A stretch of DNA of 64,000 nt from an uncultured Ignavibacteriales bacterium (GTDB lineage: Bacteria > Zixibacteria > MSB-5A5 > GN15 > FEB-12), in the NCBI GenBank assembly GCA_964464605.1, contig CAYXJN010000009.1:1-64000 (forward strand), given 5' to 3'. The notes under the pieces were generated by a model. It saw only the letters and a list, made by a program, of their open reading frames with translations, was not told where the DNA came from and did no database searches. The position numbers and the translations under genes were made by a program. Positions 34,106 to 60,095 of the stretch are shown one piece after another (the stretch's first letter is position 1; each line of letters starts with the position of its first letter).

Positions 34106-37060
34106 TTACTGCTGTTTTTCAGCGAATTGATCTGGATCGATATTATGCTGCTTGAGTTTCAAGCGAAGGGTCGACTCCGGAATATTCAAACGGGCCGCTG
34201 CATGTTTTTTCACGCCGCCTGATTCCTGCATCGCTTTCATAATAAAGCGGCGCTCATGATTGTTCAGATAATCATACAACGTGAAGGATTCCGAGAAAGT
34301 AACCTCCGAGCCATTGCCATTACCGTTTCCATTACTGGAGTGAGTAATCGGAACTGGAGCAACGCAGGCGCTTGAATCGATACGGGTCGAGAGCAGATTG
34401 GTGCCGATCTCTTCCGCATCACCGGATAACAAAACCAATTTCTTAATTTCATTGTCCAGTTCACGGATATTGCCGGGCCAGTCATAGGCAATCAATTTCT
34501 GCAGCGCTGCCGGATGTAACCGTTTTCCGCTGCCGGAAAGCAGGTTGGCAATAAGAAGTGGAATATCCTCTTTTCGTTCACGCAAGGGGGGCAGACGGAA
34601 ACTGAGGGCGGAAAGACGATAGTACAAGTCCTGACGGAACTGTCCACTTGCCATAAGTTCTTTTAAATCACGATTGGTTGCCGAAATAACGCGCACATCC
34701 ACCTTACGCGGCTGCGTTTCACCGAGGCGAACGATCTCTTTGTTTTCCAACACCCGGAGAATTTTGGCTTGAACATTAAGCGGCATATCGCCGATTTCAT
34801 CAAGAAAGAATGTTCCGCCGTTCGCTTCTTCAAAAAGTCCGGCTTTGTCTCGGTCGGCACCGGTAAATGCTCCGCGATGATACCCGAATAGTTCGGATTC
34901 AAGCAGTGTTTCCGGAAGCGCGGCACAGTTGACTGAAATAAAGCGGCTTTCTTTTCTGTCTGAATTAAAATGAATCGCGCGGGCTAATAGGTCCTTTCCG
35001 CAGCCGGTTTCCCCTTCGATACTGACGGAAATATTCGAATTTACAATCTGGCGAACCTGTGCGAGAATATCGAGCATTTCCCTGTTCTGCGTAATGATAT
35101 TCGGGAAGGCTACTTTCTCCATCAACTGCGTGGTCAAGCGGCGGTTGTCTTCAAGCAGGCGGTTCTTTTGGAACTCAGTGAACTTGTAGGCGATCAGGTC
35201 GGAAAATCCTACCGCAAAATTCAATTCGACCTGACTGAACGTATTAATGCTATTGGTATTCGTCAGTTTGTCGAGATACAAGAATCCGCTGCTGCCGTCG
35301 CTTAATGTAAACGGCACAACTAAAATACAAGCCACTACCACCGGCATTTCGGCAAATAACTCTTTGATGAATGGGTCACGGCGGCAATCAATGAGCAGCG
35401 TCGGACGGGTTTTCGAAATCTCCTGTCCTACCAGCCGCTCAAATCCGGCTTTGAATTTCTGTTCACCAGACGGGGTCATATCGAACGTCGACACTAACAC
35501 GCGCTGACCAGCTTCCTGCGCAAGCATAATGGCGCGGTCAGAACCGGTACGAACCCGGACGATTTCGAGAATATTTTTGAGTTCCCCTTCTTTAATCTGC
35601 GAATACTCAGCGGGGGTAAACAGATTGCCAAAAATCTTGTATTCATTTTCAGAAGAAATAGAAAGCGCCACCGCCTGTTCAGACAATGTGGTTAACAATC
35701 TATTCACTGCGCGCACCCGGGCGGATTCATCAAGTGCTGAGAAGATACGTTCCGCGCGGCTCAAATGACGGAATCCTGAACCAAGGTCTCCACCCTGACA
35801 GGAGAGCATACCGGTACGGAATTCGGTTTCCGCAATCCAGTATTCCGATTTCAACTGTTTGAACAAACGAATAGCCTGTTCACCGACACTCCGCACATGC
35901 TCGCGAGAGGCATTGCGGTCGGTCATCAGAATATCGATAAAGGAAACATGAGCGCGGGCATATTCGTACGGGTCACCCAATTCTCTCAATAGATCAAGCG
36001 CCTGACGAATATATTCATTGGCATCATCCTGCTTATTCTGGGCAGCGAAGACACGCGCGATCGCATGTTTCGCCATGGCTATTTCCGCTTTTTCACCAAG
36101 TTCAATCGACAAATCGAGCGCTTTTTGCGCGTACTTCATCGCTTCGCCGACATTATCTAAAGCGAGTTCAACTTCGGCCAAACGGCGGACGGTCTGCGAA
36201 ATCAACGCCGAATTCGGAGCAAGCAACGTTCCTTTGCTGTAGGCATCGTTCAAGATTGCTTTAGCGCGGAAATACTCCCCTTTTTCATAGGCCAGTTCAC
36301 CGGCGTACTCAAGGTAAATAATCGCTTCACGCTTGGCATCGATACGGGTTATCACGACATGCGCTTTATCCAACTGCTTGCTTGCCAGCGCAAACTGACG
36401 GCGGCGAAGGGCAAGATACCCGAGCGATAACAAGTTCGCCGCCTGCGAGAATTCTTCGTTATGCGCTTCCGAATAACTGAGCGCTTCCGTTAATGCTGTT
36501 TCCGCTTCCGGCCATTCCCCAAGCTGTAAGCGAATACGGCCAATATTACCGACTATCTGTAAACGTTTGCGCGGATTGTTTTGCACCAACTCAAGCGCTT
36601 CGGTCAAAAATCCAAGCGCCATCCGGTATTCACTTCGAATGAACGCGACACGACCGAGTTCATTTAACGAATCGACCTGGCCGACCTGATCGGATGCCCG
36701 ACGAAACGCCGCAAGCGCATCCCGCGCGCGAATATCTGCGTTACGAAGATCACCGACCGCACTGTATGATTTGGATAAATGACGCTGAACGGCGCCGTAA
36801 CGACGATTTAAGGGAAGATCAGCAAGTATTCTCGCTGCTTTCAGACCGGACTCAATGGCTTGGCGATAATGCCCCTCTATATATGACTTCTCCGCCTGCA
36901 AAAGCAGGAAAAGACCAAGCTCATGTTCGCTTGCAGCAAATTCTGCTTCAGTCAACAAAGACAGATCAGTAATAGCAGCCTGATTCTGGTGCTGACGAAA
37001 AAGCTCTTCGATCGCTAAAAGGCGACCATCAAAGGACAACGACTGTGAGGGTGAGGCCAT
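34106..37060 (-). CDS. Sigma-54-dependent transcriptional activator with N-terminal TPR-repeat sensor region
   Basis: About 450 aa of TPR-like repeats. AAA+ sigma-54 interaction domain (GETGCGKDLLARAIH, GAFTGA, DEIGDMPLNVQAKILRVLE). (NG)4 linker, then a C-terminal Fis-type HTH. Confidence 0.85.
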   Translation of the reverse strand: MASPSQSLSFDGRLLAIEELFRQHQNQAAITDLSLLTEAEFAASEHELGLFLLLQAEKSYIEGHYRQAIESGLKAARILADLPLNRRYGAVQRHLSKSYSAVGDLRNADIRARDALAAFRRASDQVGQVDSLNELGRVAFIRSEYRMALGFLTEALELVQNNPRKRLQIVGNIGRIRLQLGEWPEAETALTEALSYSEAHNEEFSQAANLLSLGYLALRRRQFALASKQLDKAHVVITRIDAKREAIIYLEYAGELAYEKGEYFRAKAILNDAYSKGTLLAPNSALISQTVRRLAEVELALDNVGEAMKYAQKALDLSIELGEKAEIAMAKHAIARVFAAQNKQDDANEYIRQALDLLRELGDPYEYARAHVSFIDILMTDRNASREHVRSVGEQAIRLFKQLKSEYWIAETEFRTGMLSCQGGDLGSGFRHLSRAERIFSALDESARVRAVNRLLTTLSEQAVALSISSENEYKIFGNLFTPAEYSQIKEGELKNILEIVRVRTGSDRAIMLAQEAGQRVLVSTFDMTPSGEQKFKAGFERLVGQEISKTRPTLLIDCRRDPFIKELFAEMPVVVACILVVPFTLSDGSSGFLYLDKLTNTNSINTFSQVELNFAVGFSDLIAYKFTEFQKNRLLEDNRRLTTQLMEKVAFPNIITQNREMLDILAQVRQIVNSNISVSIEGETGCGKDLLARAIHFNSDRKESRFISVNCAALPETLLESELFGYHRGAFTGADRDKAGLFEEANGGTFFLDEIGDMPLNVQAKILRVLENKEIVRLGETQPRKVDVRVISATNRDLKELMASGQFRQDLYYRLSALSFRLPPLRERKEDIPLLIANLLSGSGKRLHPAALQKLIAYDWPGNIRELDNEIKKLVLLSGDAEEIGTNLLSTRIDSSACVAPVPITHSSNGNGNGNGSEVTFSESFTLYDYLNNHERRFIMKAMQESGGVKKHAAARLNIPESTLRLKLKQHNIDPDQFAEKQQ

Positions 37061-48642: not shown

Positions 48643-50349
48643 TTATTGGGCGGCTGGGACTTCGGCGGTAACCGGTTGCTCGACATATCCGTTGAGTTCT
48701 TTGCCGTATGACTTGAACTGAATACGAAATGTTGTTCCACGACCGGCAGCGGAATCGACAGACAGAAAAAGCTGCAGCGCTGTCGCAAGCCGATGGACGA
48801 TGGCCAGGCCTAATCCGGTTCCCTGTTTTTTGGTCGAAAAGAAGGGCTGGAAAATTTTCTTCTGATGCTCTTCCGGAATGCCGGGACCGTTGTCACGAAT
48901 TTCCAGTATAACCTGGTCGGTATACTGCGCCGGATGCAGAATAAACCTGACCTCCCCCGGTTTGCCGTCGAATGCCTCGCAGGCATTTATGGCTATGTTA
49001 TACAATAGCTGCTTTATCATATCTTCGTCCCCCGTGACATAGCAGATACTTACCGGAGAATCGAATGAGACACGAACCGTTTTGTTGAACTGCGCGTGAT
49101 GAAACAAGAGTTGAATGACATCACCGATCACGTGACACAGTTCTACTTTGTTGTACAAAGGCCTGTCGATTTTGGCATAAAGCAGGAAGTCTTTCAGAAC
49201 TCTGTTAAGCCGCTGCGATTCTTTGACAATTAGCTCCATCAACCTTGAGTTTTCTCCGTCCAGCGGCATCTCTTTTTGCAAGACTTCTACCGAACCGGAA
49301 ATAGCCGCAAGCGGGTTGCGGATTTCATGGGCAATCGAAGCGGATAATTCGCCGATAGCCGCCAGCCGGTCGGCCACACGAACTTTTTGTTCCAGCATTT
49401 TCGCTTCCGTCAAATCGGAAAAAATAGCGATCACGCCGCGCAGGCCGCTTTGTTCATCGACAAGTATCGAAGTGGAAAGACCGAGCGGTATGGTTGTTCC
49501 CTGCGGCGTGGTAATGGTAATCTCTTTACGCGGGTTTGATTCATTATGTTCGACACCGTTCATTAAGGTACCGGTCAGTTCCGGCATGAATTCGGAAAAG
49601 ACATCACTGCAAAGCATCCCTTTGACTGCTTCTTCTCTGTATCCAAGTATCCGCTCAGCAGAACGGTTGAAATAGACAATCCTCCCTTCCGCATCAACGG
49701 TCAAAAGCCCTGAGTTGAGATGCTTGAGAATTTCATCCGTTTCCAACCTCGCTTTACGAAGCGCCTGAGAAGCATCGGCAAGCTGTTGATCCTGCTTTTG
49801 CAGCCGTTCGGCAAGATATCCGGCGATAAAGGCAACTAAGTAGAAAATGAGGATATGCAAAAACAGCGTGTAGAAAACATTGTCACCGGCATCTAAAATA
49901 GTTTTTAACGATTGCAGCGCTATTTCGGAACTGCCGCTTTGGCTTACCCCCATCCAGACTATAATGGTGTAGGCAGCCGACACCAGCGAAGCAACCATCA
50001 GCGTTCCGACCAACCGATAGGCAAGCGCGGCCGATACGATGGTCAAAAGGAAAAGGGCTGAATATGAAGAGCTGTAATTACCCGTTGTGTAAATGATACC
50101 TGAGTCGATTGCTATTTCAAACAGGAACTGCAGCCCGACCAAAACGCTGATGACGTTTGAAAAACGGCGGGTTTTGTTGAACGCAAGAAACAACCCGAAA
50201 GTCAGCGTCAAAACGGAATAGACCACAAACGGAAACTGCAAAAACCCGGGATACTTCATCCAGAGCACGACAAGTGAAAACAGGATGATGTAAGAAACTA
50301 TCCGAAGCGGGAGAAAGAAGCCGAGTTTGCGTACGTGAGTCATTGCCAT
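48643..50349 (-). CDS. Sensor histidine kinase (6-TM N-terminal domain, PAS, HisKA, HATPase), PilS-like by context
   Basis: H-box AHEIRNPLAAISGS; N, G1 and G2 boxes (DNGPGIPEEHQ, GTGLGL). Lies immediately downstream of pilC, as pilS does in the myxobacterial pil cluster. No adjacent response regulator. Confidence 0.8.
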   Translation of the reverse strand: MAMTHVRKLGFFLPLRIVSYIILFSLVVLWMKYPGFLQFPFVVYSVLTLTFGLFLAFNKTRRFSNVISVLVGLQFLFEIAIDSGIIYTTGNYSSSYSALFLLTIVSAALAYRLVGTLMVASLVSAAYTIIVWMGVSQSGSSEIALQSLKTILDAGDNVFYTLFLHILIFYLVAFIAGYLAERLQKQDQQLADASQALRKARLETDEILKHLNSGLLTVDAEGRIVYFNRSAERILGYREEAVKGMLCSDVFSEFMPELTGTLMNGVEHNESNPRKEITITTPQGTTIPLGLSTSILVDEQSGLRGVIAIFSDLTEAKMLEQKVRVADRLAAIGELSASIAHEIRNPLAAISGSVEVLQKEMPLDGENSRLMELIVKESQRLNRVLKDFLLYAKIDRPLYNKVELCHVIGDVIQLLFHHAQFNKTVRVSFDSPVSICYVTGDEDMIKQLLYNIAINACEAFDGKPGEVRFILHPAQYTDQVILEIRDNGPGIPEEHQKKIFQPFFSTKKQGTGLGLAIVHRLATALQLFLSVDSAAGRGTTFRIQFKSYGKELNGYVEQPVTAEVPAAQ

Positions 50350-50363
50350 TCTTAAATAACAAC

Positions 50364-50381
50364 GGCGCCCGGTGGGGCGCC
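50364..50381 (-). terminator. Possible GC-rich hairpin terminator/attenuator after pilC
   Basis: GGCGCCC-GGTG-GGGCGCC perfect hairpin. The downstream T-tract on the minus strand is weak (GTTGTTATTTAAG). Confidence 0.35.
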
Positions 50382-50428
50382 GTCGATTGGTTTTACATAC
50401 TCGTTCGTTTCAGCATCGCGAGCGCGCG

Positions 50429-51628
50429 TTACTGAATCTTCCCGATGATATCAAACATCGGCAGGTACATGGCAACCAGAATGGCGCCGATGACCACACC
50501 CATAAAGACGATAATAATCGGTTCAATAATCGATGTCAGCGCGGTTACCGCTTCATCGACTTCTTCGTCGTAGAAATCGGCAATTTTGCTGAGCATATCG
50601 TCGAGTCCGCCGGTTTTTTCACCGACTGAAATCATCTGCGTTACCATCGGCGGGAACACACCGGATTCCTTCAGCGGACCGGTAATCGTTTCACCTTCGG
50701 CAATCGACATAACGGATTTGTTAATCGCGTTAGAAATAACCAGGTTGCCGGCCGTCTTTGCGGTAATTTCAAGAGCATCAAGAATCGATACACCCGAAGA
50801 TAACAGCGTTCCAAGCGTACGGGTAAACCGGGCGATTGACGATTTGCGTACGAGCGTACCAAGTACCGGCGAGCGGAGCAATACTTTGTCGAAAGTAAGC
50901 GCACCCGATGGCGTCCGCTTCCACCAGAAGAAAATACCGCCAAGGCCGATCATACCGAGCAAGATGTACATTATGTTGGTACGCAAAAAGTTTGAGGCGC
51001 CCAATACCGCAGCGGTCGGACCGGGAAGGTCGGCACCGAGACCTGAGAACATCTTGGCAAACACCGGCACGATAAAGGTCAACATACCGAAGGTAACACC
51101 GACGGCGACGATCACAATAACCGCCGGATAGACCATTGCACCTTTTACTTTACGAATCAACCGGTCAGCCTTTTCACGGTAAACGGCCAGACGAACCAAA
51201 ATAGCATCCAGCGCACCGCCGACTTCACCAGCCTCAACCATGTTGGTATACAGCTGATCGAAAATCTTCGGGTGACGGGCCAATGCTTCGGACAACGTTG
51301 CACCACCCTGGACGCTTTCTTTTACCTGTGAGATAATTTTTCCGAATTCTTTGTTTTCCGTTTGCGTCGAAAGAATTTCCAGACACTGCACCATCGGCAA
51401 ACCTGCACCGATCATGGTAGCAAACTGACGGGTAAAGCGGGAGATTTCGACTTTCTTGACTCCCGTTCCGAACTTGATATTTATCTCCGGCGCCCGCTTG
51501 GATATATTGGTCACCATGATCTTGTTTTGACGCAGAACGCGTTCAAGGTCCTCACGGCTTTTCGCTTTCAGCGAACCCTGAACGGCGGCGCCAGCGAGCG
51601 TCTTTCCTTTGTATTCAAATACCGGCAT
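50429..51628 (-). CDS. pilC: Type IV pilus inner-membrane platform protein PilC (GspF family)
   Basis: 399 aa; two GspF repeats with three TM helices. Confidence 0.9.
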   Translation of the reverse strand: MPVFEYKGKTLAGAAVQGSLKAKSREDLERVLRQNKIMVTNISKRAPEINIKFGTGVKKVEISRFTRQFATMIGAGLPMVQCLEILSTQTENKEFGKIISQVKESVQGGATLSEALARHPKIFDQLYTNMVEAGEVGGALDAILVRLAVYREKADRLIRKVKGAMVYPAVIVIVAVGVTFGMLTFIVPVFAKMFSGLGADLPGPTAAVLGASNFLRTNIMYILLGMIGLGGIFFWWKRTPSGALTFDKVLLRSPVLGTLVRKSSIARFTRTLGTLLSSGVSILDALEITAKTAGNLVISNAINKSVMSIAEGETITGPLKESGVFPPMVTQMISVGEKTGGLDDMLSKIADFYDEEVDEAVTALTSIIEPIIIVFMGVVIGAILVAMYLPMFDIIGKIQ

Positions 51629-51658: not shown

Positions 51659-52732
51659 TTAGCTGTAAGCCGGAGTTTTCTGACGCGAGAGCATTTCCGA
51701 AAGCTCCTGCGGGTTGCTTGAATATCCCATGGCGTCGTTGATTGAAATTTTGTTGGTCGTGTACAACTCGGCCAGTGACTGATTCATGGTTTTCATTCCG
51801 TACTTCTGTCCTGATTGAATCATGGAGTAAATCTGATGCACCTTGTCATCGCGGATAAGCGCGCGAATGGCAGGGGTAACAATCAGAATTTCCAGCGCGG
51901 CAACACGTCCACCGCCGATTTTCGGAATAAGGTTTTGCGAGACAATTGCCTGCAGCGAGAAGGAAAGCGAGATACGCACCTGCTCCTGCTGGTTGGTCGG
52001 GAACGAATCGACAATACGGTTGATCGATTCCGCAGCCGAGTTCGTGTGCAACGTTGCAAACGCCAAGTGACCGGTTTCGGCAATCGACAAGGCGGATTCT
52101 ATCGTTTCCAGGTCGCGCATTTCACCGACCAGCACCACATCCGGATCTTCACGCAGCGCATACTTCAGAGCCGCAGCAAAGGAATTGGTATCCGAATACA
52201 CTTCACGCTGATTTACCAGCGCCATCTGGTGGCGGTGCAAATATTCGATCGGGTCTTCAACGGTGATAATATGCACCGGACGTTCTTTGTTGATCTTATC
52301 GATCACGGATGCCAGCGTCGTCGATTTACCCGAACCGGTCGGTCCGGTAACGAGTACCAGCCCGCGCGGCAGTTTGGAAAATTCAGCGATGACTTTAGGC
52401 AACCCGAGTTCTTCGAAGGTGAGAATCTTGTACGGAATCTGACGCAGCACCACTGCCACATTACCGCGCTGCATGAACATATTGCAGCGGAAGCGGCTCA
52501 TCGATTCGATACCGAACGAAAAATCGAGTTCAGAATTCTGTTCGAATTTCTGTTTCTGCTTTTCATTCAACATGGAATAGGAAAGCTTTTTTGTCTGATC
52601 GCTGGTCAAGGCATCATGATTGAGCCGGGTAAGCTTACCGTCGATACGAACGACTGGCGGAGACCCCACTGTGAGATGGAGATCCGAAGCATTCATCTTT
52701 ACCATCTGTTCTAATAATTCGCGTAATGTCAC
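51659..52732 (-). CDS. pilT: Type IV pilus retraction ATPase PilT
   Basis: Walker A GPTGSGKST, Asp box, His box, and the AIRALIRD motif (PilT AIRNLIRE-type). Confidence 0.9.
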   Translation of the reverse strand: MTLRELLEQMVKMNASDLHLTVGSPPVVRIDGKLTRLNHDALTSDQTKKLSYSMLNEKQKQKFEQNSELDFSFGIESMSRFRCNMFMQRGNVAVVLRQIPYKILTFEELGLPKVIAEFSKLPRGLVLVTGPTGSGKSTTLASVIDKINKERPVHIITVEDPIEYLHRHQMALVNQREVYSDTNSFAAALKYALREDPDVVLVGEMRDLETIESALSIAETGHLAFATLHTNSAAESINRIVDSFPTNQQEQVRISLSFSLQAIVSQNLIPKIGGGRVAALEILIVTPAIRALIRDDKVHQIYSMIQSGQKYGMKTMNQSLAELYTTNKISINDAMGYSSNPQELSEMLSRQKTPAYS

Positions 52733-52874: not shown

Positions 52875-54569
52875 TTAGGCAGTAACGCCGAAAACCTCAT
52901 CCACGCCGACCAGACCCTGTTTCATCTTGTCTACGGCGCACATACGCAGGCTGAACATCCCCTCCTCCAAAGCCACTTTACGGATTTCGGTATCCGGAGC
53001 TCTTTGGAGGATTAGGGCCTCAATGGCCGGGCTGATGGGCATAACCTCATACAGACCGGTACGGCCGGAACGGCCGGTCTGGTTGCATTCACTGCAACCG
53101 GTAGCTTCGAAGGCACGGATATTTCGTAGCAGCTCTTTCGGCATATTCAACCCGTCTACCTGCTGCGGCGTCAGGTTGATTTCATGCTTACAGGACTGGC
53201 AAAGCTTACGAACCATTCGCTGGGCCATAATCAGTTTGGTTGCCGAGGCAACCAGATAGAACGGAATATTCATATCGATCAAACGAGTGACCGATGAAGG
53301 CGCATCGTTGGTGTGAAGCGTCGAAAACACCAAGTGCCCCGTGAGCGCGGCACGAATAGCGATTTCTGCCGTTTCGGTATCACGAATTTCACCGACCATG
53401 ATAATGTCCGGGTCCTGTCGCAAGAACGAGCGCAAGGCTGCGGCGAAGGTTAACCCGATATCGCTTTTTACTGCGACTTGGTTGATGCCGTCGAAGTTGA
53501 ACTCGACCGGATCTTCGGCGGTCATGATGTTCACGTCTACTGTATTCAATGTCTTAAGAGCGGAATACAGCGTCGTTGTTTTACCCGAACCGGTAGGCCC
53601 CGTTACCAGAATAATACCGAACGGTGAACTCAGTTTATCCTGAAATTTCTTAAGGTCTTCTTCTCTAAATCCAAGTCGCGTCATGTCGACCATGAGCGCC
53701 ATCGGATCGAGAATTCGCATAACGACTTTTTCGCCGTAAATTGTCGGCAGAACGGACACACGCAAGTCGACCGTGCGGCCGGCGATTTTGATTTTGATAC
53801 GACCATCCTGCGGCAAACGCCGTTCGGAAATATCGAGATCGGCCATAATTTTTACGCGCGATATAATTGCCGCGCGATATTTAAACGGCAGTGGCGCCAT
53901 TTCACGCAAATCACCGTCGATACGATAGCGTACGCGAATCCGTTTTTCGTACATTTCAAGATGGATATCAGATGCGCGCGTTCTGATCGCGTCGCCGATA
54001 ATCGAGTCTACCAGCTTAACGAGCGGTTTGTCCTGAATTGCAGACAACAAATCAGAGTCGGTAGGCGCATCATCATTTTCGACGATCTCCAGCCCGCCGC
54101 TGTCGTCTTCGAGTCCTTTGACGATTTCAGAAAGACCGCTGCCATCTTTGTAAAACATGTAGATCGCCTTTTCGATGGCGGCTTCCGGCGAGATAACCGG
54201 CTGAACGGTGCAGCCCGTAATAAATTTGATGGCATCGATAACGTAAATATTGTTCGGATCGCTTATCGCGACGAGGATATTCTTATTGATCTTGGATATG
54301 GCGATGACTTTGAACTTGCGGGCAATATCAAGCGGGATGAGCTTGACGACTTCCGGATTCAACTCGATATCACTTAAGCGAAGCGCGCCGATTTTGAGGT
54401 GCTTGCCGACTAATTTGGCAACCTCATCCTCGGACTGTACGGCACCAACCTGCACTAATGCGGTTTCGAATTTCTCTTTCTTATTCCGCACTAAGGCAAG
54501 CGCCTGATCGACCTGCTCTTGTGAAACCTGACCGGCTTTTACCAGTAAGGATGCCAGTTCTGTTGACAT
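52875..54569 (-). CDS. pilB: Type IV pilus assembly ATPase PilB (GspE family)
   Basis: N-terminal GspII_E_N domain, Walker A GPTGSGKTTT, tetracysteine motif CQSC...CSEC. Confidence 0.9.
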   Translation of the reverse strand: MSTELASLLVKAGQVSQEQVDQALALVRNKKEKFETALVQVGAVQSEDEVAKLVGKHLKIGALRLSDIELNPEVVKLIPLDIARKFKVIAISKINKNILVAISDPNNIYVIDAIKFITGCTVQPVISPEAAIEKAIYMFYKDGSGLSEIVKGLEDDSGGLEIVENDDAPTDSDLLSAIQDKPLVKLVDSIIGDAIRTRASDIHLEMYEKRIRVRYRIDGDLREMAPLPFKYRAAIISRVKIMADLDISERRLPQDGRIKIKIAGRTVDLRVSVLPTIYGEKVVMRILDPMALMVDMTRLGFREEDLKKFQDKLSSPFGIILVTGPTGSGKTTTLYSALKTLNTVDVNIMTAEDPVEFNFDGINQVAVKSDIGLTFAAALRSFLRQDPDIIMVGEIRDTETAEIAIRAALTGHLVFSTLHTNDAPSSVTRLIDMNIPFYLVASATKLIMAQRMVRKLCQSCKHEINLTPQQVDGLNMPKELLRNIRAFEATGCSECNQTGRSGRTGLYEVMPISPAIEALILQRAPDTEIRKVALEEGMFSLRMCAVDKMKQGLVGVDEVFGVTA

Positions 54570-54633: not shown

Positions 54634-55125
54634 CTAATCCTGGAAAATATCATCCAAGCGGTTTTCCGCCTGGGAGGCAAAATCTCCGGCAAGCTGCGGC
54701 TTGCTGTTTTGATTGGAGTTCGCCTGAATCTGATTGAAAATCGCGCCCAATGCCTGTGAGGTTTCACGCGCATACAGACGCACCATGCCGATAGTCGTGC
54801 GGTCATCGAAGATCACCACAAGAATCGAGCGTTCACCCACCAGTGACATGTGGATGTGGTCCTTTTTACCCTGATGGAACAAGACCGAAAATTCCGGTTC
54901 GCCGACCAGGCGGGCGATCTCTTTCGTCGAGGCAAATGACCCCGCCAAAAGCGCCGCTAAAGCCGTCGTATCAAGTGAGTGCGTGAATCCCTGACGGGTA
55001 ATCAGGTGTCCATCCTTGTCAACCAGCAAGGCGCACTTCGCTTCGGCTTGTTTGAGCATTTTCGAGATTATCGCATCTATTGCGCGAATCTCTTCTTCGT
55101 AAATGACGAGCGAATCATCAGCCAT
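54634..55125 (-). CDS. mglB: MglB (roadblock/LC7 GAP of MglA)
   Basis: Closely resembles the remembered Myxococcus MglB sequence (LVIYEEE...LVDKDGHLI...GENEF...FHQGKKD...VVIFD) and has an acidic C-terminal tail. Confidence 0.8.
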   Translation of the reverse strand: MADDSLVIYEEEIRAIDAIISKMLKQAEAKCALLVDKDGHLITRQGFTHSLDTTALAALLAGSFASTKEIARLVGEPEFSVLFHQGKKDHIHMSLVGERSILVVIFDDRTTIGMVRLYARETSQALGAIFNQIQANSNQNSKPQLAGDFASQAENRLDDIFQD

Positions 55126-55148: not shown

Positions 55149-56207
55149 CTATCGAATACCAAATAATCGTTTAAAGAATCCCCGCTTCTTGGCTTCCGGA
55201 CGCCGTTTGAGCGGCGGAGCCATGGCAGGACGAATCCGACCACTATCATTCATCATATCATCAGCACCTTTCGCGTCATCGAGCATAAACGGCCGCGTGA
55301 CAGTCGAGGTGGCGGATTCAGGAGTACTGCTGCCATACAAACCGGCAGCAGGGTTACGTCTTTCCGCGGTGGCAACGGAACCTTGTGAGGCTCCAGATGA
55401 ACCGGGATACGGACGGTAGCTGTCAGTGGACGTTGCCGCCGGCGCAAAGGACGGTTCGACCGGCGCACCGAACCCGGTGCGGGAAGGGGTTTCAGCCGCC
55501 GATCCAAACGGGGAGGGGGACGAAGCTGCCGCAGCGGCGGTCGGATAGCTTGGAATTTCCGGTTGCGGCGCAGGCTGCGCAACGGCAGCAGGAGCGGCAA
55601 CGGCGGACGGACGGGTGCGCGCTTTGGTCGTCTTCGCTTTTTCCAGCACCAGTTTGATAACTAATTTCAAAGTATCAAACACACCGGTTCCGGAAGGCGC
55701 AGCCGCTTCGAAATGCGGCCAGTTGTGCGTATTCAGTTTCGCGTTAAGTTCATCAACCGAAAGCACACCCGGTAAATCCCGTTTGTTGTATTGAATCACG
55801 ATTGGGACTTCATTAACGTCGTATCCGTACTCTCGTAAGTTCTCTTCAAGATTCAAAAGCGATTCGATGTTCTCATCCATTTTGTCCGGCTGGCTGTCGG
55901 CGACAAACACGACACCATCAACACCGCGCAGCACTAACTTACGGGTCGCGTTGTAATAGACCTGACCGGGAACGGTGTACAACTGAAAGCGGGCGGCGAA
56001 ACCGTTGATCGTTCCAATGTTGATCGGAAGAAAGTCAAAATAGAGCGTGCGATCAGCTTCCGTTGCCAATGAAATCAAATTGCCGCGCGTGTTCTGCGGC
56101 ACTTTGGAATGGACATACTGCAGATTGGTGGTTTTACCGGATAAGCCGGGACCATAGTACACAATCTTGCAGCAGACTTCCCGTGCTGAATAATTAATTG
56201 ATACCAT
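55149..56207 (-). CDS. mglA: MglA Ras-like GTPase with ~160-aa disordered C-terminal extension ending in an amphipathic helix
   Basis: Residues 1-195 are near-identical in motifs to MglA ([43 protein letters not shown]). They are followed by an Ala/Pro/Ser-rich tail and a terminal [13 protein letters not shown]. Confidence 0.85.
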
Positions 56208-56208
56208 A

Positions 56209-56553
56209 TCACCCGACTGCTTTCAGTTTGTTGATCGCGTTTTTGATTTCCAGCCGGATCAGGCCGATGTTGATATCCCTTTCGGTTGTCACGACTAAAA
56301 TGCCGCGACCGCCGGAATCTGTGAAAAACATCTTTCCGTTTTCCGCTTCAATCGTCACCTGACGTAAATTGCTGGTCTGCAAACGCTCGAGCGACTTCTG
56401 AATGTTGGACGTAATAGAAGCTGCCAGCGCACCGACAGTTTCTCCTTCAAACGAAGTCGAAAGATCGGCCGCGATAACGATGCCGTCATTACCGACAACC
56501 ATCGAACCGGTGATACCGGATGTCTTATTCAGTTCACTGAGTACTTGATACAT
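56209..56553 (-). CDS. Roadblock/LC7 domain protein (MglB paralogue, MglC-like)
   Basis: Start placed at [10 protein letters not shown]. Roadblock-like pattern ([16 protein letters not shown]...[20 protein letters not shown]). Its stop is 1 nt from the mglA start. Confidence 0.6.
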
Positions 56554-57556
56554 GGTATTTCTCCGCGTTCGGCGACAGCTTTTGACTGTACCGTTCTGAA
56601 ACATATTTTCTGATTATATCGAGCGCCTGGGTGATACGGATATGGAGCACATCGTCTCCATGCCGTTCCGCCACTACCAACAGGCAGGTCTGCTCATCGG
56701 CGCGGGCAATCGCCATACGCGCTTCCGGCAGAGTAAGGTCTAATTTTTCCGTCGTTTGCCAGCCGCCGCGCATCAGCACTCTGTTATTGTGCATTAACAG
56801 CTCGCATGCATACGGTGCCCATTCTTCCGGATCAACCGTACCGCGATGACACTGCGCCAGCATCAATCCTTCCGAATCGACAACCGCAGCCAATTTGACC
56901 GACCAGTCCTCGCACATATAGCGAACGGCACGTTCGAAGCCGTTGGCATCGGAATGAGAATTCGGTGCTTGATAGTAAACATCGGTTAAGCGATCAGATG
57001 GTGATGAGACCGTGTCCATAGCATGATGACCGAAGGAACTGGTATGGGCAGCGGAAGCCGGGCTCGGTTTCGGCGCTCCATTTTTTGAAAGCACGATTGT
57101 CGCCCGGCCGTTCTGGTCGTATTCACGACCGGCCATCGCCTGCGTCTGCGGCTCAAAACGGCGACGCGGCGCACCGAACATCTCTTTGAGAAAACCCATC
57201 AATAAAAACGGCGCAGGAACAGAAAGTAACAACAGTCCCGGTATATACGCGCCGAAGGCGGCTTCCATGGCATTGCCGAAATTCATCGAATAAAAAGCAA
57301 CGGCAAGCACGGCGAACAGAAAGCTCAAGCCTGCTCGGTAGACTAAACAGGTAAACGCTGATTTTAAAATAACGGAGACTGACTCAGCACGCATAAGCAG
57401 GTATGACATAACGCCGTAATACACCAGTTCTAAAAGCAGTGTTGCCGCTGAAATCTCTGCCAGTCCGGTGCCGAATCGCTCCGGAAACAACGCCAGCGTA
57501 ACGGCAAGCTGAATCCCTGCAAAGATCAGCAATTGTCGAAATGTGCGTCCATTCAT
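56534..57556 (-). CDS. Membrane protein (4 TM) with C-terminal roadblock/LC7-like domain
   Basis: N-terminal hydrophobic helices, then a C-terminal segment (KLAAVVDSEGLMLAQ...CLLVVAERHGDDVLHIRITQAL) with roadblock-like beta-alpha-beta pattern. Confidence 0.5.
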   Translation of the reverse strand: MNGRTFRQLLIFAGIQLAVTLALFPERFGTGLAEISAATLLLELVYYGVMSYLLMRAESVSVILKSAFTCLVYRAGLSFLFAVLAVAFYSMNFGNAMEAAFGAYIPGLLLLSVPAPFLLMGFLKEMFGAPRRRFEPQTQAMAGREYDQNGRATIVLSKNGAPKPSPASAAHTSSFGHHAMDTVSSPSDRLTDVYYQAPNSHSDANGFERAVRYMCEDWSVKLAAVVDSEGLMLAQCHRGTVDPEEWAPYACELLMHNNRVLMRGGWQTTEKLDLTLPEARMAIARADEQTCLLVVAERHGDDVLHIRITQALDIIRKYVSERYSQKLSPNAEKYHVSSTQ

Positions 57557-57579: not shown

Positions 57580-58422
57580 TTATTTATACCGAATGCGCAG
57601 TTCCTCTATTTTCATTCGCAAAGTACCCAGATTCGCTTCCGGCAGCGCCACAAACAGGAAAAATCCCCGTGCCGCACGTAACAGGTAAAACGTGAATTGC
57701 TGGGCTTCAATAAGAATTGTATCGACATCTCCGTACTTAACCCGTACTAATTCCCGCGAAACGGTGTTGCATACTTCAGCTAACGTCGCGGCACAGGAAA
57801 TCGAATCCAAATTAGAGCGCCATTCCGATTCGACCACCAAACCTTCAGTATTGAAAAAAAGCGCCCCACCCATTCCCTGAATTTCGACACCCAGTTCCAA
57901 TACTTCCCGTGCCGTAAGCACAGTAGCCATAGTGGCGTGAGTCGGACCGTCGGTCCGCTCCATTGATTTCGCAGCGCCTGGAATAACAACCCGTCCGGAT
58001 TCTTCCGGCAGTTTGCGAGCGATATCCAAAAGCTTGGTAATCTGCGGATTTCCTTTATCCGCGTCATGCAGCCGCTTCAACAGCGTAATTGCAGAATTAA
58101 ACTCCCCTTTGTAAATATAAATCTCTGCTAAAAGCAGTTCGATTGCTCTGGTGTGGCCGTCAATTTCAATCGCCTTTTGCGCTTCAATTTCCGCCCAGTC
58201 ATAAAGTCCGCGATCCAAATTGATCTTAGCCATAACGACATGCGCCGCGCCATACGACGGGTGCACTTTCAGTCCATTATGACAGACACGAAACGCCTTG
58301 TCTAACTCACCATTTTTCCGGTAAGCCTCAGCCAGCGCCGCAAATATCTGCGAGTTGGGGTCAGTCTCTAAAAGCTTCTGACATTTCACTATCCGATCTT
58401 GTACATCGACTTGTGTTGCCAT
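57580..58422 (-). CDS. TPR-repeat protein fused to a C-terminal roadblock/LC7-like domain
   Basis: Three or four TPR units in residues ~10-140. The C-terminus (GMGGALFFNTEGLVVESEW...ILIEAQQFTFYLLRAARGFFLFVAL) has a roadblock-like pattern. Confidence 0.55.
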   Translation of the reverse strand: MATQVDVQDRIVKCQKLLETDPNSQIFAALAEAYRKNGELDKAFRVCHNGLKVHPSYGAAHVVMAKINLDRGLYDWAEIEAQKAIEIDGHTRAIELLLAEIYIYKGEFNSAITLLKRLHDADKGNPQITKLLDIARKLPEESGRVVIPGAAKSMERTDGPTHATMATVLTAREVLELGVEIQGMGGALFFNTEGLVVESEWRSNLDSISCAATLAEVCNTVSRELVRVKYGDVDTILIEAQQFTFYLLRAARGFFLFVALPEANLGTLRMKIEELRIRYK

Positions 58423-58524: not shown

Positions 58525-58899
58525 TCAACTGAGTGTCCGTCTCGTTTCAAAAATCCCGTACAAAAAGAGACCGGCCATACAGCCGTACATCATCGGAACC
58601 AGAAAACCGGGAGCACTGAAAAATTCCATCGTATGGAAAAGCGCCATCAACTGGCTGGCCCCCAAAACCACAAAGGCGGCCATAAACAGCTGCCAGCTTT
58701 TCGCAAGCATTCCACCGCGCACCAGAGTCAGAACTCTAAATGAACCAAGCGCACAGGCAACCGCCAAACCCAGCACGGTCAAGTTCAACAGCGAGGAGGG
58801 CTGCATTAAGGCAATGAAAGATGCGGCATGAGCTGATTCTCCTCCGCCCAACACTACCGCTCCGATAAGTAGCACACATAACCGTTTCATATCGCTCAA
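58525..58899 (-). CDS. Small hypothetical membrane protein (124 aa)
   Basis: Signal/TM MKRLCVLLIGAVVLGGG plus three further hydrophobic helices. Translationally coupled to the DUF4388 gene by a 4-nt overlap. Confidence 0.45.
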   Translation of the reverse strand: MSDMKRLCVLLIGAVVLGGGESAHAASFIALMQPSSLLNLTVLGLAVACALGSFRVLTLVRGGMLAKSWQLFMAAFVVLGASQLMALFHTMEFFSAPGFLVPMMYGCMAGLFLYGIFETRRTLS

Positions 58900-60095
58900 C
58901 CTCTCACCATTTTAACGACCCGATCTGCTCGCTTGATCGTTTTGTACAAATTGTCTTCTATGTGATACCGTTTGACTATTTCACGACGGGTAGCCAGCGG
59001 TTCCGTAATTTCTTTTTTCACCAATCCAACCGCTTCGCGGAACGGACCAACGCCTAACACCTGAAAGACAAATTCAAGATGTTCAGAGAGCATACCATCC
59101 AGACTGGTCATCAGTTTGTGGTAGCGCACATTGGGCGGAAGCGCTTTAACAGCGGTCAGGTATTTATCGTATGAAGGGCCTTCTTCTGCCTGCGGATCGA
59201 ATCCCGGGAAGTGCATCAAGAGTCCGTTTCGATATTGCGCGGTAAAGGCGGCATAGCGGCTGCTTTCGCCGACAATCGATTCGACCAATGTTCTGATTCT
59301 GAAGAAACAGGAATTGTACATGGTGAAAATAATCGCCAGCACGATATCCTCTTCATCTTCGATTTCAGTCGGGCGTTCCTCCCGCTTACCGCCTGCAATA
59401 ACCAGATTATTGACAATCAGCTTGTAGACGGCGCGGCAGGTAACGAATTCACCGATCGGAGAAACGCTGATAAGTTCCGGCAAGGTGCGCTGTCCGTTCA
59501 TAAGGGCGAGAATTTTGAATTCATCAAGCGACAGCACAATCTCTTCTTCACCGCTTTTCGGATTCCGGTTGACCGCTAATTCGATATTATCCGGCGGCAA
59601 TACTTTCTGAATCTCCACCCACTCATCAACCCGGCGGGTCCCTTCCATCAGTACGCTCATAGTCGGAAGTTCGATGATAAACGGCGTATTGGCAGGAAGC
59701 TTTCCTTCATGAAGAATGAAGTCCCCTTCATGCCAGGAGAACAGATTGTAAACGATCTCTTCAATCTGCATCCGCAAACATTCTGCAATTTCTTCTTTGT
59801 CGAACAACTGCATGTCGATAAGCGTTGAGCCGAGCTGACGGCCGGTTTGCTTATGCATGGTTATTGCGCGGTCTAAATCCGTCTTGGTGATTTTCCCTTT
59901 GGCCAAAAGCATATTACCTAAGAGATCTTCGCTTGAATTCAGCGAGGATGCATAAATAATATTCCCGACGCGGAATGCGACTTCCTTCTGACGGGTCTGA
60001 GTCCGAATCTCAAGCAGTCCGGTCTTTTTGCCGGCGGCTAATAACTGCAGAATATCCGGAAACGAAACCGTTCTAAGATTTCCTGACAAACTCAT
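58896..60095 (-). CDS. DUF4388 domain-containing protein
   Basis: N-terminus LSGNLRTVSFPDILQLLAAGKKTGLLEI is the DUF4388 signature. A second, similar segment near residue 180 (LSLDEFKILALMNGQRTLPEL). Confidence 0.6.
   Translation of the reverse strand: MSLSGNLRTVSFPDILQLLAAGKKTGLLEIRTQTRQKEVAFRVGNIIYASSLNSSEDLLGNMLLAKGKITKTDLDRAITMHKQTGRQLGSTLIDMQLFDKEEIAECLRMQIEEIVYNLFSWHEGDFILHEGKLPANTPFIIELPTMSVLMEGTRRVDEWVEIQKVLPPDNIELAVNRNPKSGEEEIVLSLDEFKILALMNGQRTLPELISVSPIGEFVTCRAVYKLIVNNLVIAGGKREERPTEIEDEEDIVLAIIFTMYNSCFFRIRTLVESIVGESSRYAAFTAQYRNGLLMHFPGFDPQAEEGPSYDKYLTAVKALPPNVRYHKLMTSLDGMLSEHLEFVFQVLGVGPFREAVGLVKKEITEPLATRREIVKRYHIEDNLYKTIKRADRVVKMVRG

Follow-up and report, generated by a model that had tools for sequence, protein, structure and literature searches.

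The mglA-long gene and its C-terminal tail

The 64-kb window analysed here (64,000 nucleotides of contig CAYXJN010000009.1, from an uncultured Ignavibacteriales bacterium placed by GTDB in Zixibacteria) carries on its reverse strand a variant gene of MglA, the model bacterial Ras-like GTPase, in which the GTPase (G) domain is followed by a C-terminal tail of 157 amino acids (aa). The gene, called mglA-long, lies within a module of pilus-associated genes, and its tail combines a long disordered linker with three short conserved motifs, the last of which is a basic peptide resembling the membrane-targeting sequence of MinD. The comparisons described below suggest that this tail probably leashes the MglA switch to the inner membrane, on its cytoplasmic side. 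The gene and its parts are as follows:

55149..56207, reverse strand: mglA-long, complete open reading frame (ORF) of 352 aa plus stop codon, with a PDB phmmer match to MglA (E 6.6e-81) and 120 full-length homologues
55623..56207, reverse strand: G domain, aa 1–195, with the P-loop GPGLSGKT (19–26), R53/T54 and TVPGQ (78–82) including Thr78 and Gln82
55152..55622, reverse strand: tail, aa 196–352 (157 aa), Ala/Pro/Ser-rich, following the G domain
55230..55622, reverse strand: disordered Ala/Pro/Ser-rich linker, aa 196–326, hypervariable in sequence and length, mostly with a predicted local distance difference test (pLDDT) score <50 and no secondary structure
From aa 196: hypervariable spacer with the greatest length variation, 51–145 aa from the G domain to motif 1
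55398..55418, reverse strand: motif 1, YRPYPGS, aa 264–270, pattern x-R-P-[YF]-P-G
55200..55229, reverse strand: motif 2, aa 327–336, P-x-M-A-P-[SP]-ϕ-[KR]-R-R, opening the polybasic stretch
55152..55190, reverse strand: polybasic run and MinD-type amphipathic peptide, aa 340–352, with a 10-residue helix region at aa 343–352; the stop codon occupies 55149–55151

The first 195 residues, which the preliminary description of this DNA had taken for a canonical MglA GTPase domain, proved to be just that. Residues 3–192 were aligned without gaps to MglA of Myxococcus xanthus (5ymx_A, E 6.6e-81) and of Thermus thermophilus (3t12_A, E 4e-71) in phmmer searches of the PDB. The identity to the M. xanthus protein was 64% over approximately 190 residues, and the segment LYTVPGQV of the 352-aa protein was in register with it. 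The P-loop, R53, T54, T78, G81, and Q82 were invariant across the 120 homologues. The features typical of MglA group 1 were all present, that is, homology of the G domain, TxxG in place of DxxG in the PM3 motif (Thr78), the arginine finger Arg53, Gln82, and an adjoining Roadblock gene; TxxG, Arg53, and Gln82 belong to the published definition of the group (PMC3000849, PMC4316618). The group is also described as consisting of single-domain proteins of approximately 190–200 aa (≤240 aa in the census of PMC4316618), a size exceeded both by the window protein (352 aa) and by its relatives (324–414 aa), and therefore the protein was filed as a variant architecture, not as a canonical MglA member. 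Considering its hallmarks, we concluded that mglA-long codes for a true nucleotide switch of the MglA type, nucleotide switching itself being predicted from the sequence; a possible role in polarity or motility is indicated by the neighbouring pilB, pilT, and pilC genes.

The tail agreed in size and composition (157 aa with A30, P22, S19, R14, G12, and T11) with the Ala/Pro/Ser-rich extension of about 160 aa that had been reported, and the coordinates then assigned to it (55149–55700) covered it fully, except that they also extended over ~26 codons at the end of the G domain. The G+C content of the tail-coding DNA reached 62–70%, compared with ~45–55% in the surroundings. Such GC-rich DNA of low complexity, the other frames and the opposite strand of which also hold long ORFs, could speak for an artefact, namely a frameshift, misassembly, or read-through that fused a 195-aa mglA to noncoding or out-of-frame sequence; this explanation, however, can practically be dismissed. 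The identical 352-aa product was present on 15 contigs (the six shown came from different sequencing runs and had the same neighbours), and the distance from the stop codon of mglA to the start of the downstream mglB-like gene was 23 nt in all loci. The best 120 matches among 5.8 billion proteins were all 332–384 aa long, nearly all of them ~60% identical over 100% of the query, and they ended in MAPS[LI][KR]RR, followed by the terminal peptide and [ILMV][KR]. Although their linkers vary in length and are rich in indels, none of the 120 homologues showed a change of frame between the G domain and the C-terminal motif. The ratio of nonsynonymous to synonymous substitution rates (dN/dS), calculated in comparison with the nearest homologue (locus L126, 87% identical), was 0.018 for the G domain and 0.18 for the variable linker, while the conserved tail motifs contained 0 nonsynonymous and 8 synonymous changes; compared with a 68%-identical homologue, the dN/dS of these motifs was 0.015. 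On the basis of the in-frame homologues and the low dN/dS values, we concluded that the tail is translated and under selection, and the strongest constraint within it sits on the short motifs. The frameshift or sequencing error that the preliminary description had considered is thereby excluded, and the tail, being carried by all 120 best homologues, is a family trait, not a peculiarity of one genome.

The disorder expected for the tail was also found. In the AlphaFold2 model, calculated with the 120-sequence alignment, most of the 199–329 region had pLDDT values <50 without secondary structure, with short intervening stretches at ~50, and the single structural element of the tail was a short terminal helix at 344–349 (pLDDT ~63). 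The linker columns of the homologue alignment showed high entropy and frequent gaps, and the length of the linker varied between 119 and 208 aa in 155 homologues. The earlier picture of a tail made of a linker and a terminal helix was correct as to these two parts and had missed two further conserved islands, RP[YF]PG and PxMAPS, which are the two new invariant short motifs yielded by the present analysis. In the first of them, R265, P266, P268, and G269 were invariant in 120 sequences, and RP[YF]PG occurred in 158/158 family members, always at a distance of 68–86 aa from the C-terminus, whereas its distance from the G domain was as variable as indicated above for the spacer. In the second one, M329 was invariant and P327, A330, P331, and R336 were ≥90% conserved among the 120 homologues, and M[ASGD][PA][SPA] was found in 155 of the 158 family members. 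These two motifs are most likely docking sites for partner proteins belonging to the gene module.

A sublineage of the tailed family with proteins of 373–414 aa (loci L007, L010, L014, L015, L050, L054, L063, L084, L094, and L120) carried an extra conserved block, (R)RERRITVSDFQP, after the RPFPG motif, and its pre-anchor motif started with MAPS.R(V/I)(V/I). Two other views of the tail were considered as well. Its origin by repeat expansion was rejected as the tandem-repeat search of the tail-coding DNA was empty, and autoinhibition by the tail was unsupported, since no confident contact of the tail motifs with the G domain appeared in the single-chain AlphaFold model.

The terminal peptide and the endings of related proteins

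The membrane-targeting sequence of Escherichia coli MinD is KGFLKRLFGG (PMC5471200, a paper using it as a tag). GFFKRLFG of the window protein equals the E. coli core GFLKRLFG at seven of eight positions and has hydrophobic residues at i, i + 1, i + 4, and i + 5, while the exact E. coli core was carried by three of the MglA-tail homologues. A degenerate DNA pattern encoding G-F-[FL]-K-R-L-F-G had one match in the 64-kb window and none in 100 shuffles. When DNA coding for RGFFKRLFG was scanned in one genome per GTDB species, at least 119 loci were obtained. MglA tails accounted for 48 of them; in 40 the ORF also included the G domain, and eight were cut by the edge of the sequence block. In all 48 tail-bearing MglA ORFs among the matches listed RGFFKRLFG was followed by exactly two residues. 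The same nine residues form the C-terminus of at least three proteins that score as true MinDs, from Ottowia, Caldimonas, and a metagenome-assembled genome of Campylobacterales (TIGR01968 scores of 333–348 bits, cut-off 212.9). The likeness to MinD noted in the preliminary description was thus borne out by the 7/8 core match, the true MinDs ending in the same 9-mer, and the homologues with the exact core. It is limited, however, to the last ~10 residues: membership in the MinD/ParA ATPase family was rejected, as the protein has neither a deviant Walker A motif nor a ParA/MinD domain, and Pfam gives Arf/Ras matches only.

All 120 database homologues shared the C-terminal ending of the window protein, with G343 and G350 invariant and all other positions of the terminal peptide ≥90% conserved. 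The hydrophobic moment of the window peptide was 0.49, compared with 0.55 for the E. coli MinD peptide, and the Wimley–White interfacial sums were −1.63 and −0.56 kcal/mol, respectively. The net charge of the last 25 residues was +8 in the window protein and between +7 and +11 in all 120 homologues, the rest of their tails being neutral to acidic (median −4). The substitutions seen in the terminal peptide within the family were F to I, L, or W and L to I or V. The nearest clusters at 50% identity had more divergent forms such as SFFLFRLFGKK, RFFLFRWFKK, and FSLFGWLKRLGRK, endings which are aromatic and basic and still stand at the extreme C-terminus. What these substitutions preserve is the character of the peptide and not its sequence.

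Outside MglA and MinD, a peptide of the RGFFKRLFG type was present among the matches listed at the C-terminal end, or close to it, in class A penicillin-binding proteins (PBPs) of Bacteroidota, Acidobacteriota, Elusimicrobia, and Alphaproteobacteria (PBP1A-type loci L019, L026, L027, L029, L045, L059, L073, L075, L078, and L089), in one FtsY (L077), and in BamC-like lipoproteins (L017 and L124). Judged from this distribution, RGFFKRLFG appears to behave as a portable, generic membrane-sticking element rather than as the ligand of a single protein.

A profile of the 120 sequences was then compared with 1.84 billion representatives of 50% identity clusters, and 2,880 proteins were found at E ≤ 1e-30. 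The best 150 of the 2,880 were all long (255–717 aa), a figure that does not give the fraction of long proteins in the family because the ranking is biased toward long proteins by the low-complexity columns of the tail. Basic amphipathic endings occurred in ~55 of these best 150 representatives (49 recognised by pattern and about six by eye), for example KKKGFFGGLFNKDK, and ~19 had a hydrophobic, transmembrane-like ending, the rest carrying other conserved elements. The type of the anchor tracked the G-domain clusters, all of which were 55–64% identical to M. xanthus MglA. In the Fibrobacterota/Chitinivibrionales set, 75 of 107 proteins ended in KKKGFFDGLFKKEK-type peptides, and in the Planctomycetota set (proteins P0389–P0506, ~320–400 aa) a transmembrane-like hydrophobic segment was located in the last 45 residues of 105 out of 118. 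Judging by these segments and their surroundings, the Planctomycetota homologues appear to be MglAs anchored through their tails and encoded between two Roadblock genes. The core Roadblock–MglA–Roadblock, with TPR or PATAN genes upstream, was kept in the one example locus inspected from each of Fibrobacterota and Planctomycetota.

Several further peculiarities were observed in these distant tails. Behind the transmembrane-like segment of the Planctomycetota proteins, a conserved stretch HYDxHLKPxLGGG is often seen (context in L128, 5001–6053). Long MglAs of Fibrobacterota (450–700 aa; P0155, P0282–P0303; L129, 5001–6848) contained several N-P-F-[GA]-G repeats in the tail. The pattern [KRQN]-P-[YF]-x-G was enriched in diverse MglA tails (40/261 compared with 12.4 ± 3.2 in shuffles) and could represent a linear motif common to them; one subgroup, which lacks the terminal helix, ended in ϕ-D-ϕ-[KQ]-P-[YF]-x-G. 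Another set of Fibrobacterota-related long MglAs lacking the terminal helix (P0305–P0321) ended in AFL[ST]P[ED]E[IL]..[LF]Q......[FY]PT[RQ]R[ML]P[LM][GN]PG.

The pilus-associated gene module

The surroundings of mglA-long contain the following genes and signals, given in the direction of transcription:

58896–60095, reverse strand: PATAN/DUF4388 protein (Pfam DUF4388, E 2.9e-32)
58525–58899, reverse strand: hypothetical protein of 124 aa between the PATAN and TPR genes, its position kept in at least 21 related loci
57580–58422, reverse strand: TPR protein (Pfam TPR_14/TPR_19)
56534..57556, reverse strand: apparent integral-membrane protein of 340 aa with a C-terminal Roadblock-like domain, two genes upstream of mglA, synteny conserved
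56209..56604, reverse strand: second Roadblock protein, 131 aa from the first ATG, abutting the start codon of mglA (Pfam Robl_LC7, E 6.6e-16), synteny conserved
54634..55125, reverse strand: mglB-like Roadblock protein of 163 aa, 23 nt downstream of mglA (Pfam Robl_LC7, E 5e-14)
52875–54569, reverse strand: pilB (Pfam T2SSE and MshEN)
51659–52732, reverse strand: pilT (Pfam T2SSE)
50429–51628, reverse strand: pilC (Pfam T2SSF)
50360–50385: strong terminator-like hairpin just after pilC, with an 11-bp stem including nine G-C pairs (terminator scan)

In all 48 MglA-tail loci among the matches listed, gene order and strand were identical as far as the 8-kb blocks reached, the order being PATAN/DUF4388, the 124-aa hypothetical protein, TPR, the 340-aa membrane protein, Roadblock, MglA-long, the MglB-like Roadblock, PilB, PilT, and PilC. 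The deposited labels of these loci were Zixibacteria (26), Ignavibacteriales/Ignavibacteriaceae (13), and unclassified (five), with one each for the FCB group, GN15, Candidatus Acidoferrum, and Candidatus Deferrimicrobium; the Ca. Acidoferrum record, a contig of 2.9 kb, may have been binned wrongly. The tiny intergenic gaps between the PATAN gene and pilC, together with the hairpin behind pilC, suggest that the module is one long transcription unit.

Three genes of the module are related to the Roadblock family. The 163-aa protein encoded downstream of mglA reached 94 bits over the full length of the NCBIfam MglB model NF052242, below the cut-off of 200; it is probably MglB, judged from its sequence, and a gene of this kind stood at the same position in all loci reaching that far. 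The 340-aa product has about four hydrophobic segments within aa 6–125. A profile of its C-terminal 136 aa matched the neighbouring Roadblock family with an hhalign probability of 91% (E 1e-6), and a weak Pfam Robl_LC7 match (E 0.15) covered nearly the whole model. These data suggest that the 340-aa product is an integral-membrane Roadblock protein, although neither it nor the 124-aa neighbour had a match in Pfam or NCBIfam at default thresholds, and the 124-aa protein had no Pfam match even at E = 10. The start of the second Roadblock gene is ambiguous: the 131-aa version overlaps the 340-aa gene by 71 nt (56534..56604), and in independent assemblies the gene was called as a 114-aa ORF starting at ~56553, with an overlap of ~20 nt.

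The stretch 48643..50349, just downstream of the pilus motor genes, encodes on the reverse strand a histidine kinase resembling PilS (6TM_PilS, PAS, HisKA, and HATPase domains), and a 984-aa protein with TPR and sigma-54 activator parts is found further downstream, at 34106..37060 on the same strand. The kinase and the activator probably regulate the same pilus system.

Taken together, the feature is larger than had been described from the sequence at first, with three conserved motifs in the tail, a fixed pilus-associated module of 10 genes, and a principle shared, with different anchors, by at least three phyla.

Proposed membrane attachment, its alternatives, and known systems

The strongest argument for the function of the terminal element comes from the fact that orthologous tails end either in a helix of the MinD type or a related one, or else in a transmembrane segment, which points to membrane attachment as the function; the conservation of this design across whole phyla suggests that the switch works leashed to the membrane, like eukaryotic Ras. 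In the model that we consider probable, the terminal helix would lie in the membrane interface with F344, F345, L348, F349, and I351 turned toward the acyl chains, while the 8–9 surrounding Lys/Arg residues would pair with anionic lipid head groups. The ~145-residue linker would let the G domain explore ~10 nm under the membrane, and up to ~50 nm if fully stretched, so that the GTP/GDP cycle of MglA would be confined to this layer. Such a tether would raise the local concentration of MglA near the membrane Roadblock platform, MglB, and the PilB/PilT/PilC motor, and RP[YF]PG and PxMAPS, held at a fixed distance from the anchor, would dock partners from the module. Membrane binding as such, the arrangement described, the proteins docking on the motifs, and the consequences for pilus polarity are what we infer.

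Several points weigh against the model. The hydrophobic moment of the peptide was not significantly above that of permutations of the same 11 residues (p = 0.24), a test for which the peptide is too short and too biased; therefore, the case rests on the comparative evidence. The amphipathic helix noted in the preliminary description accordingly stood in part, being seen in the AlphaFold2 model and in a moment close to that of MinD but not in the comparison with permutations, and the modest pLDDT of the modelled helix (only ~63) counts on the negative side as well. The C-termini of class A PBPs should be periplasmic, where a MinD-type helix is unexpected; as the 9-mer also ends these proteins, it would be a generic sticky element, and the inner leaflet is not specified by the peptide alone. 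Finally, Szeto et al. and Hu & Lutkenhaus are said to have found in 2003 that a lone E. coli MinD targeting sequence is too weak and that dimerisation of MinD is needed. MglA is monomeric, and therefore its affinity would need to be supplied by the additional Phe/Ile residues and the polybasic run.

The weakness of a single helix leads to a variant that refines the leash model and that we regard as possible, though rather unlikely. The helix could be masked, or too weak, in one state, so that the protein would be membrane-bound only in its GTP state, in clusters, or when docked to the membrane Roadblock protein; it would cycle on and off the membrane like MinD, Arf, and archaeal ArcoA, and together with MglB it could form a self-organising polarity oscillator. 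A single MinD-type helix reportedly works by avidity. Masking or clustering could be brought about by the two invariant motifs, whose distance from the anchor is fixed. In Haloferax, a Min-like oscillation is driven by a Ras-superfamily GTPase that has an amphipathic helix (bioRxiv 10.64898/2026.07.23.738820), and MglA/MglB of M. xanthus is already an oscillating system. A direct gating by the nucleotide is, however, not obvious with ~145 disordered residues between the helix and the G domain, nor did AlphaFold dock the tail motifs on the G domain with confidence. Moreover, the transmembrane segments of Planctomycetota cannot cycle, and the polybasic run (+7 to +11) argues for a fairly strong binding.

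Alternatively, the terminal peptide and the motifs could bind proteins instead of lipid, which would make the tail a flexible hub for pilus or regulator proteins and the likeness to MinD a coincidence or the sign of a shared partner. At least two invariant short motifs resembling classical linear motifs, the enrichment of [KRQN]P[YF]xG (40/261 vs. 12.4 ± 3.2 in shuffles), and the upstream TPR and PATAN genes, which encode typical peptide and GTPase binders, are all in line with this explanation. Nevertheless, we consider it improbable: the 9-mer ends unrelated proteins (MinD, PBP1A, FtsY, and BamC-like) in unrelated phyla, for which a lipid ligand fits better, close relatives preserve the physico-chemical character and not the sequence of the peptide, and a transmembrane segment substitutes for it in other phyla.

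That the tail would mainly drive condensation or polar clustering, or be an entropic spacer with the terminal peptide in a minor role, is highly improbable; the long Ala/Pro/Ser/Glu/Thr-rich disordered linker, free to vary in sequence and held within 119–208 aa in length, speaks for such a function, but the most conserved part of the tail is the terminal peptide and not the low-complexity stretch, and Pro/Ala/Ser/Glu-rich, aromatic-poor linkers are generally typical spacers and not sticker-rich condensate formers.

Returning to the leash model, these data offer the C-terminal extension of MglA a concrete predicted function, that of a disordered leash with a membrane anchor, the type of which differs in at least three phyla. 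If confirmed, it would mean that a large part of the MglA family operates at the membrane, as Ras, Rho, and Arf of eukaryotes do, and the view of how this model GTPase family works would be revised, in so far as the inferences drawn here hold. The model bears on the evolution of polarity switches, on the positioning of type IV pili in uncultured bacteria of the FCB group, and on the question of whether Roadblock–GTPase membrane platforms predate eukaryotes. A more far-reaching version, which we regard as speculative and doubtful, is that membrane-anchored MglA is widespread, possibly ancestral, with the anchor differing by phylum, being a helix of the MinD type in Zixibacteria and relatives, a similar helix in Fibrobacterota, and a transmembrane tail anchor in Planctomycetota, and that in modules of the Zixibacteria type the tethered MglA, its GTPase-activating protein MglB, and the membrane Roadblock protein form a self-organising, Min-like reaction–diffusion system that places type IV pili without RomR-type landmarks, the motifs coupling the GTPase to the platform. 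If true, this would be a bacterial counterpart of the Ras hypervariable-region anchor combined with the Rag–Ragulator arrangement.

The polar localisation of MglA in Myxococcus is explained entirely by protein–protein interactions of a soluble protein. The window protein shares with MglA of M. xanthus and T. thermophilus (5ymx, 6h17, and 3t12) the P-loop, Arg53, Thr78, Gln82, the adjoining MglB-type gene, and the association with type IV pili, but those proteins are 195–196 aa long, lack a tail, and are regarded as cytosolic (PMC3000849; bioRxiv 10.64898/2026.07.23.738820). In the latter work, a preprint of July 2026, MglA is called "cytosolic" and contrasted with membrane-bound relatives. The differences in the window amount to 157 extra residues, three conserved motifs, and two additional Roadblock genes, one product of which appears to be membrane-embedded; no published membrane-anchored MglA was found in the open-access literature. 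Long MglAs themselves were recorded earlier. Fremgen, Burke & Hartzell (2010; PMC3000849) listed "Group II MglA2" homologues of 225–327 aa with an extra C-terminal region, for example a 313-aa protein of Fibrobacter succinogenes, while the census of prokaryotic small GTPases by Wuichet & Søgaard-Andersen (2014; PMC4316618) excluded sequences >240 aa. Like the Group II proteins, the window protein has an MglA-like G domain with a C-terminal extension, and long MglAs of Fibrobacterota were recovered as relatives here; Group II was, however, listed without an MglB partner and with no function assigned to the extension, whereas the window has an adjoining mglB-like gene and a tail resolved into its parts.

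The E. coli MinD peptide is similar in its position at the extreme C-terminus, its 7/8 core match, and its comparable moment and interfacial hydrophobicity. In MinD, however, it sits directly on a dimerising ParA-type ATPase, while in the window protein it is joined to a monomeric GTPase through a ~145-aa linker and is accompanied by a stronger polybasic run (+8 in 25 residues). As there is no homology to MinD outside the peptide, the likeness represents convergence or reuse of the motif. Arf/Sar1 and archaeal ArcoA have an N-terminal helix that adjoins the G domain and is nucleotide-gated in Arf/Sar1, in contrast to the C-terminal, remote helix of the window protein; ArcoA's amphipathic helix is needed for its Min-like oscillation (bioRxiv 10.64898/2026.07.23.738820). 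The layout of the window protein has an analogy in the eukaryotic Ras/Rho family, with the same order of parts; it differs in having no CAAX box or lipidation, an amphipathic helix as anchor, and a linker 5–10 times longer, and there is no sign of a common descent of the tails. In that family (K-Ras4B with its lipid anchor, and Rit and the RGK GTPases with polybasic/aromatic C-termini free of lipid), the G domain is followed by a hypervariable disordered C-terminus, a polybasic cluster, and a terminal membrane element. By a similar analogy, the module may be likened to Rag on Ragulator/LAMTOR, where a small GTPase also works with Roadblock proteins, one of them fixed to the membrane, a part that the 340-aa transmembrane and Roadblock-like protein would play here. 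In Ragulator the anchor is the lipidated scaffold LAMTOR1 and the GTPase has none, whereas in the module of the window the GTPase appears to carry an anchor of its own, as does a Roadblock protein.

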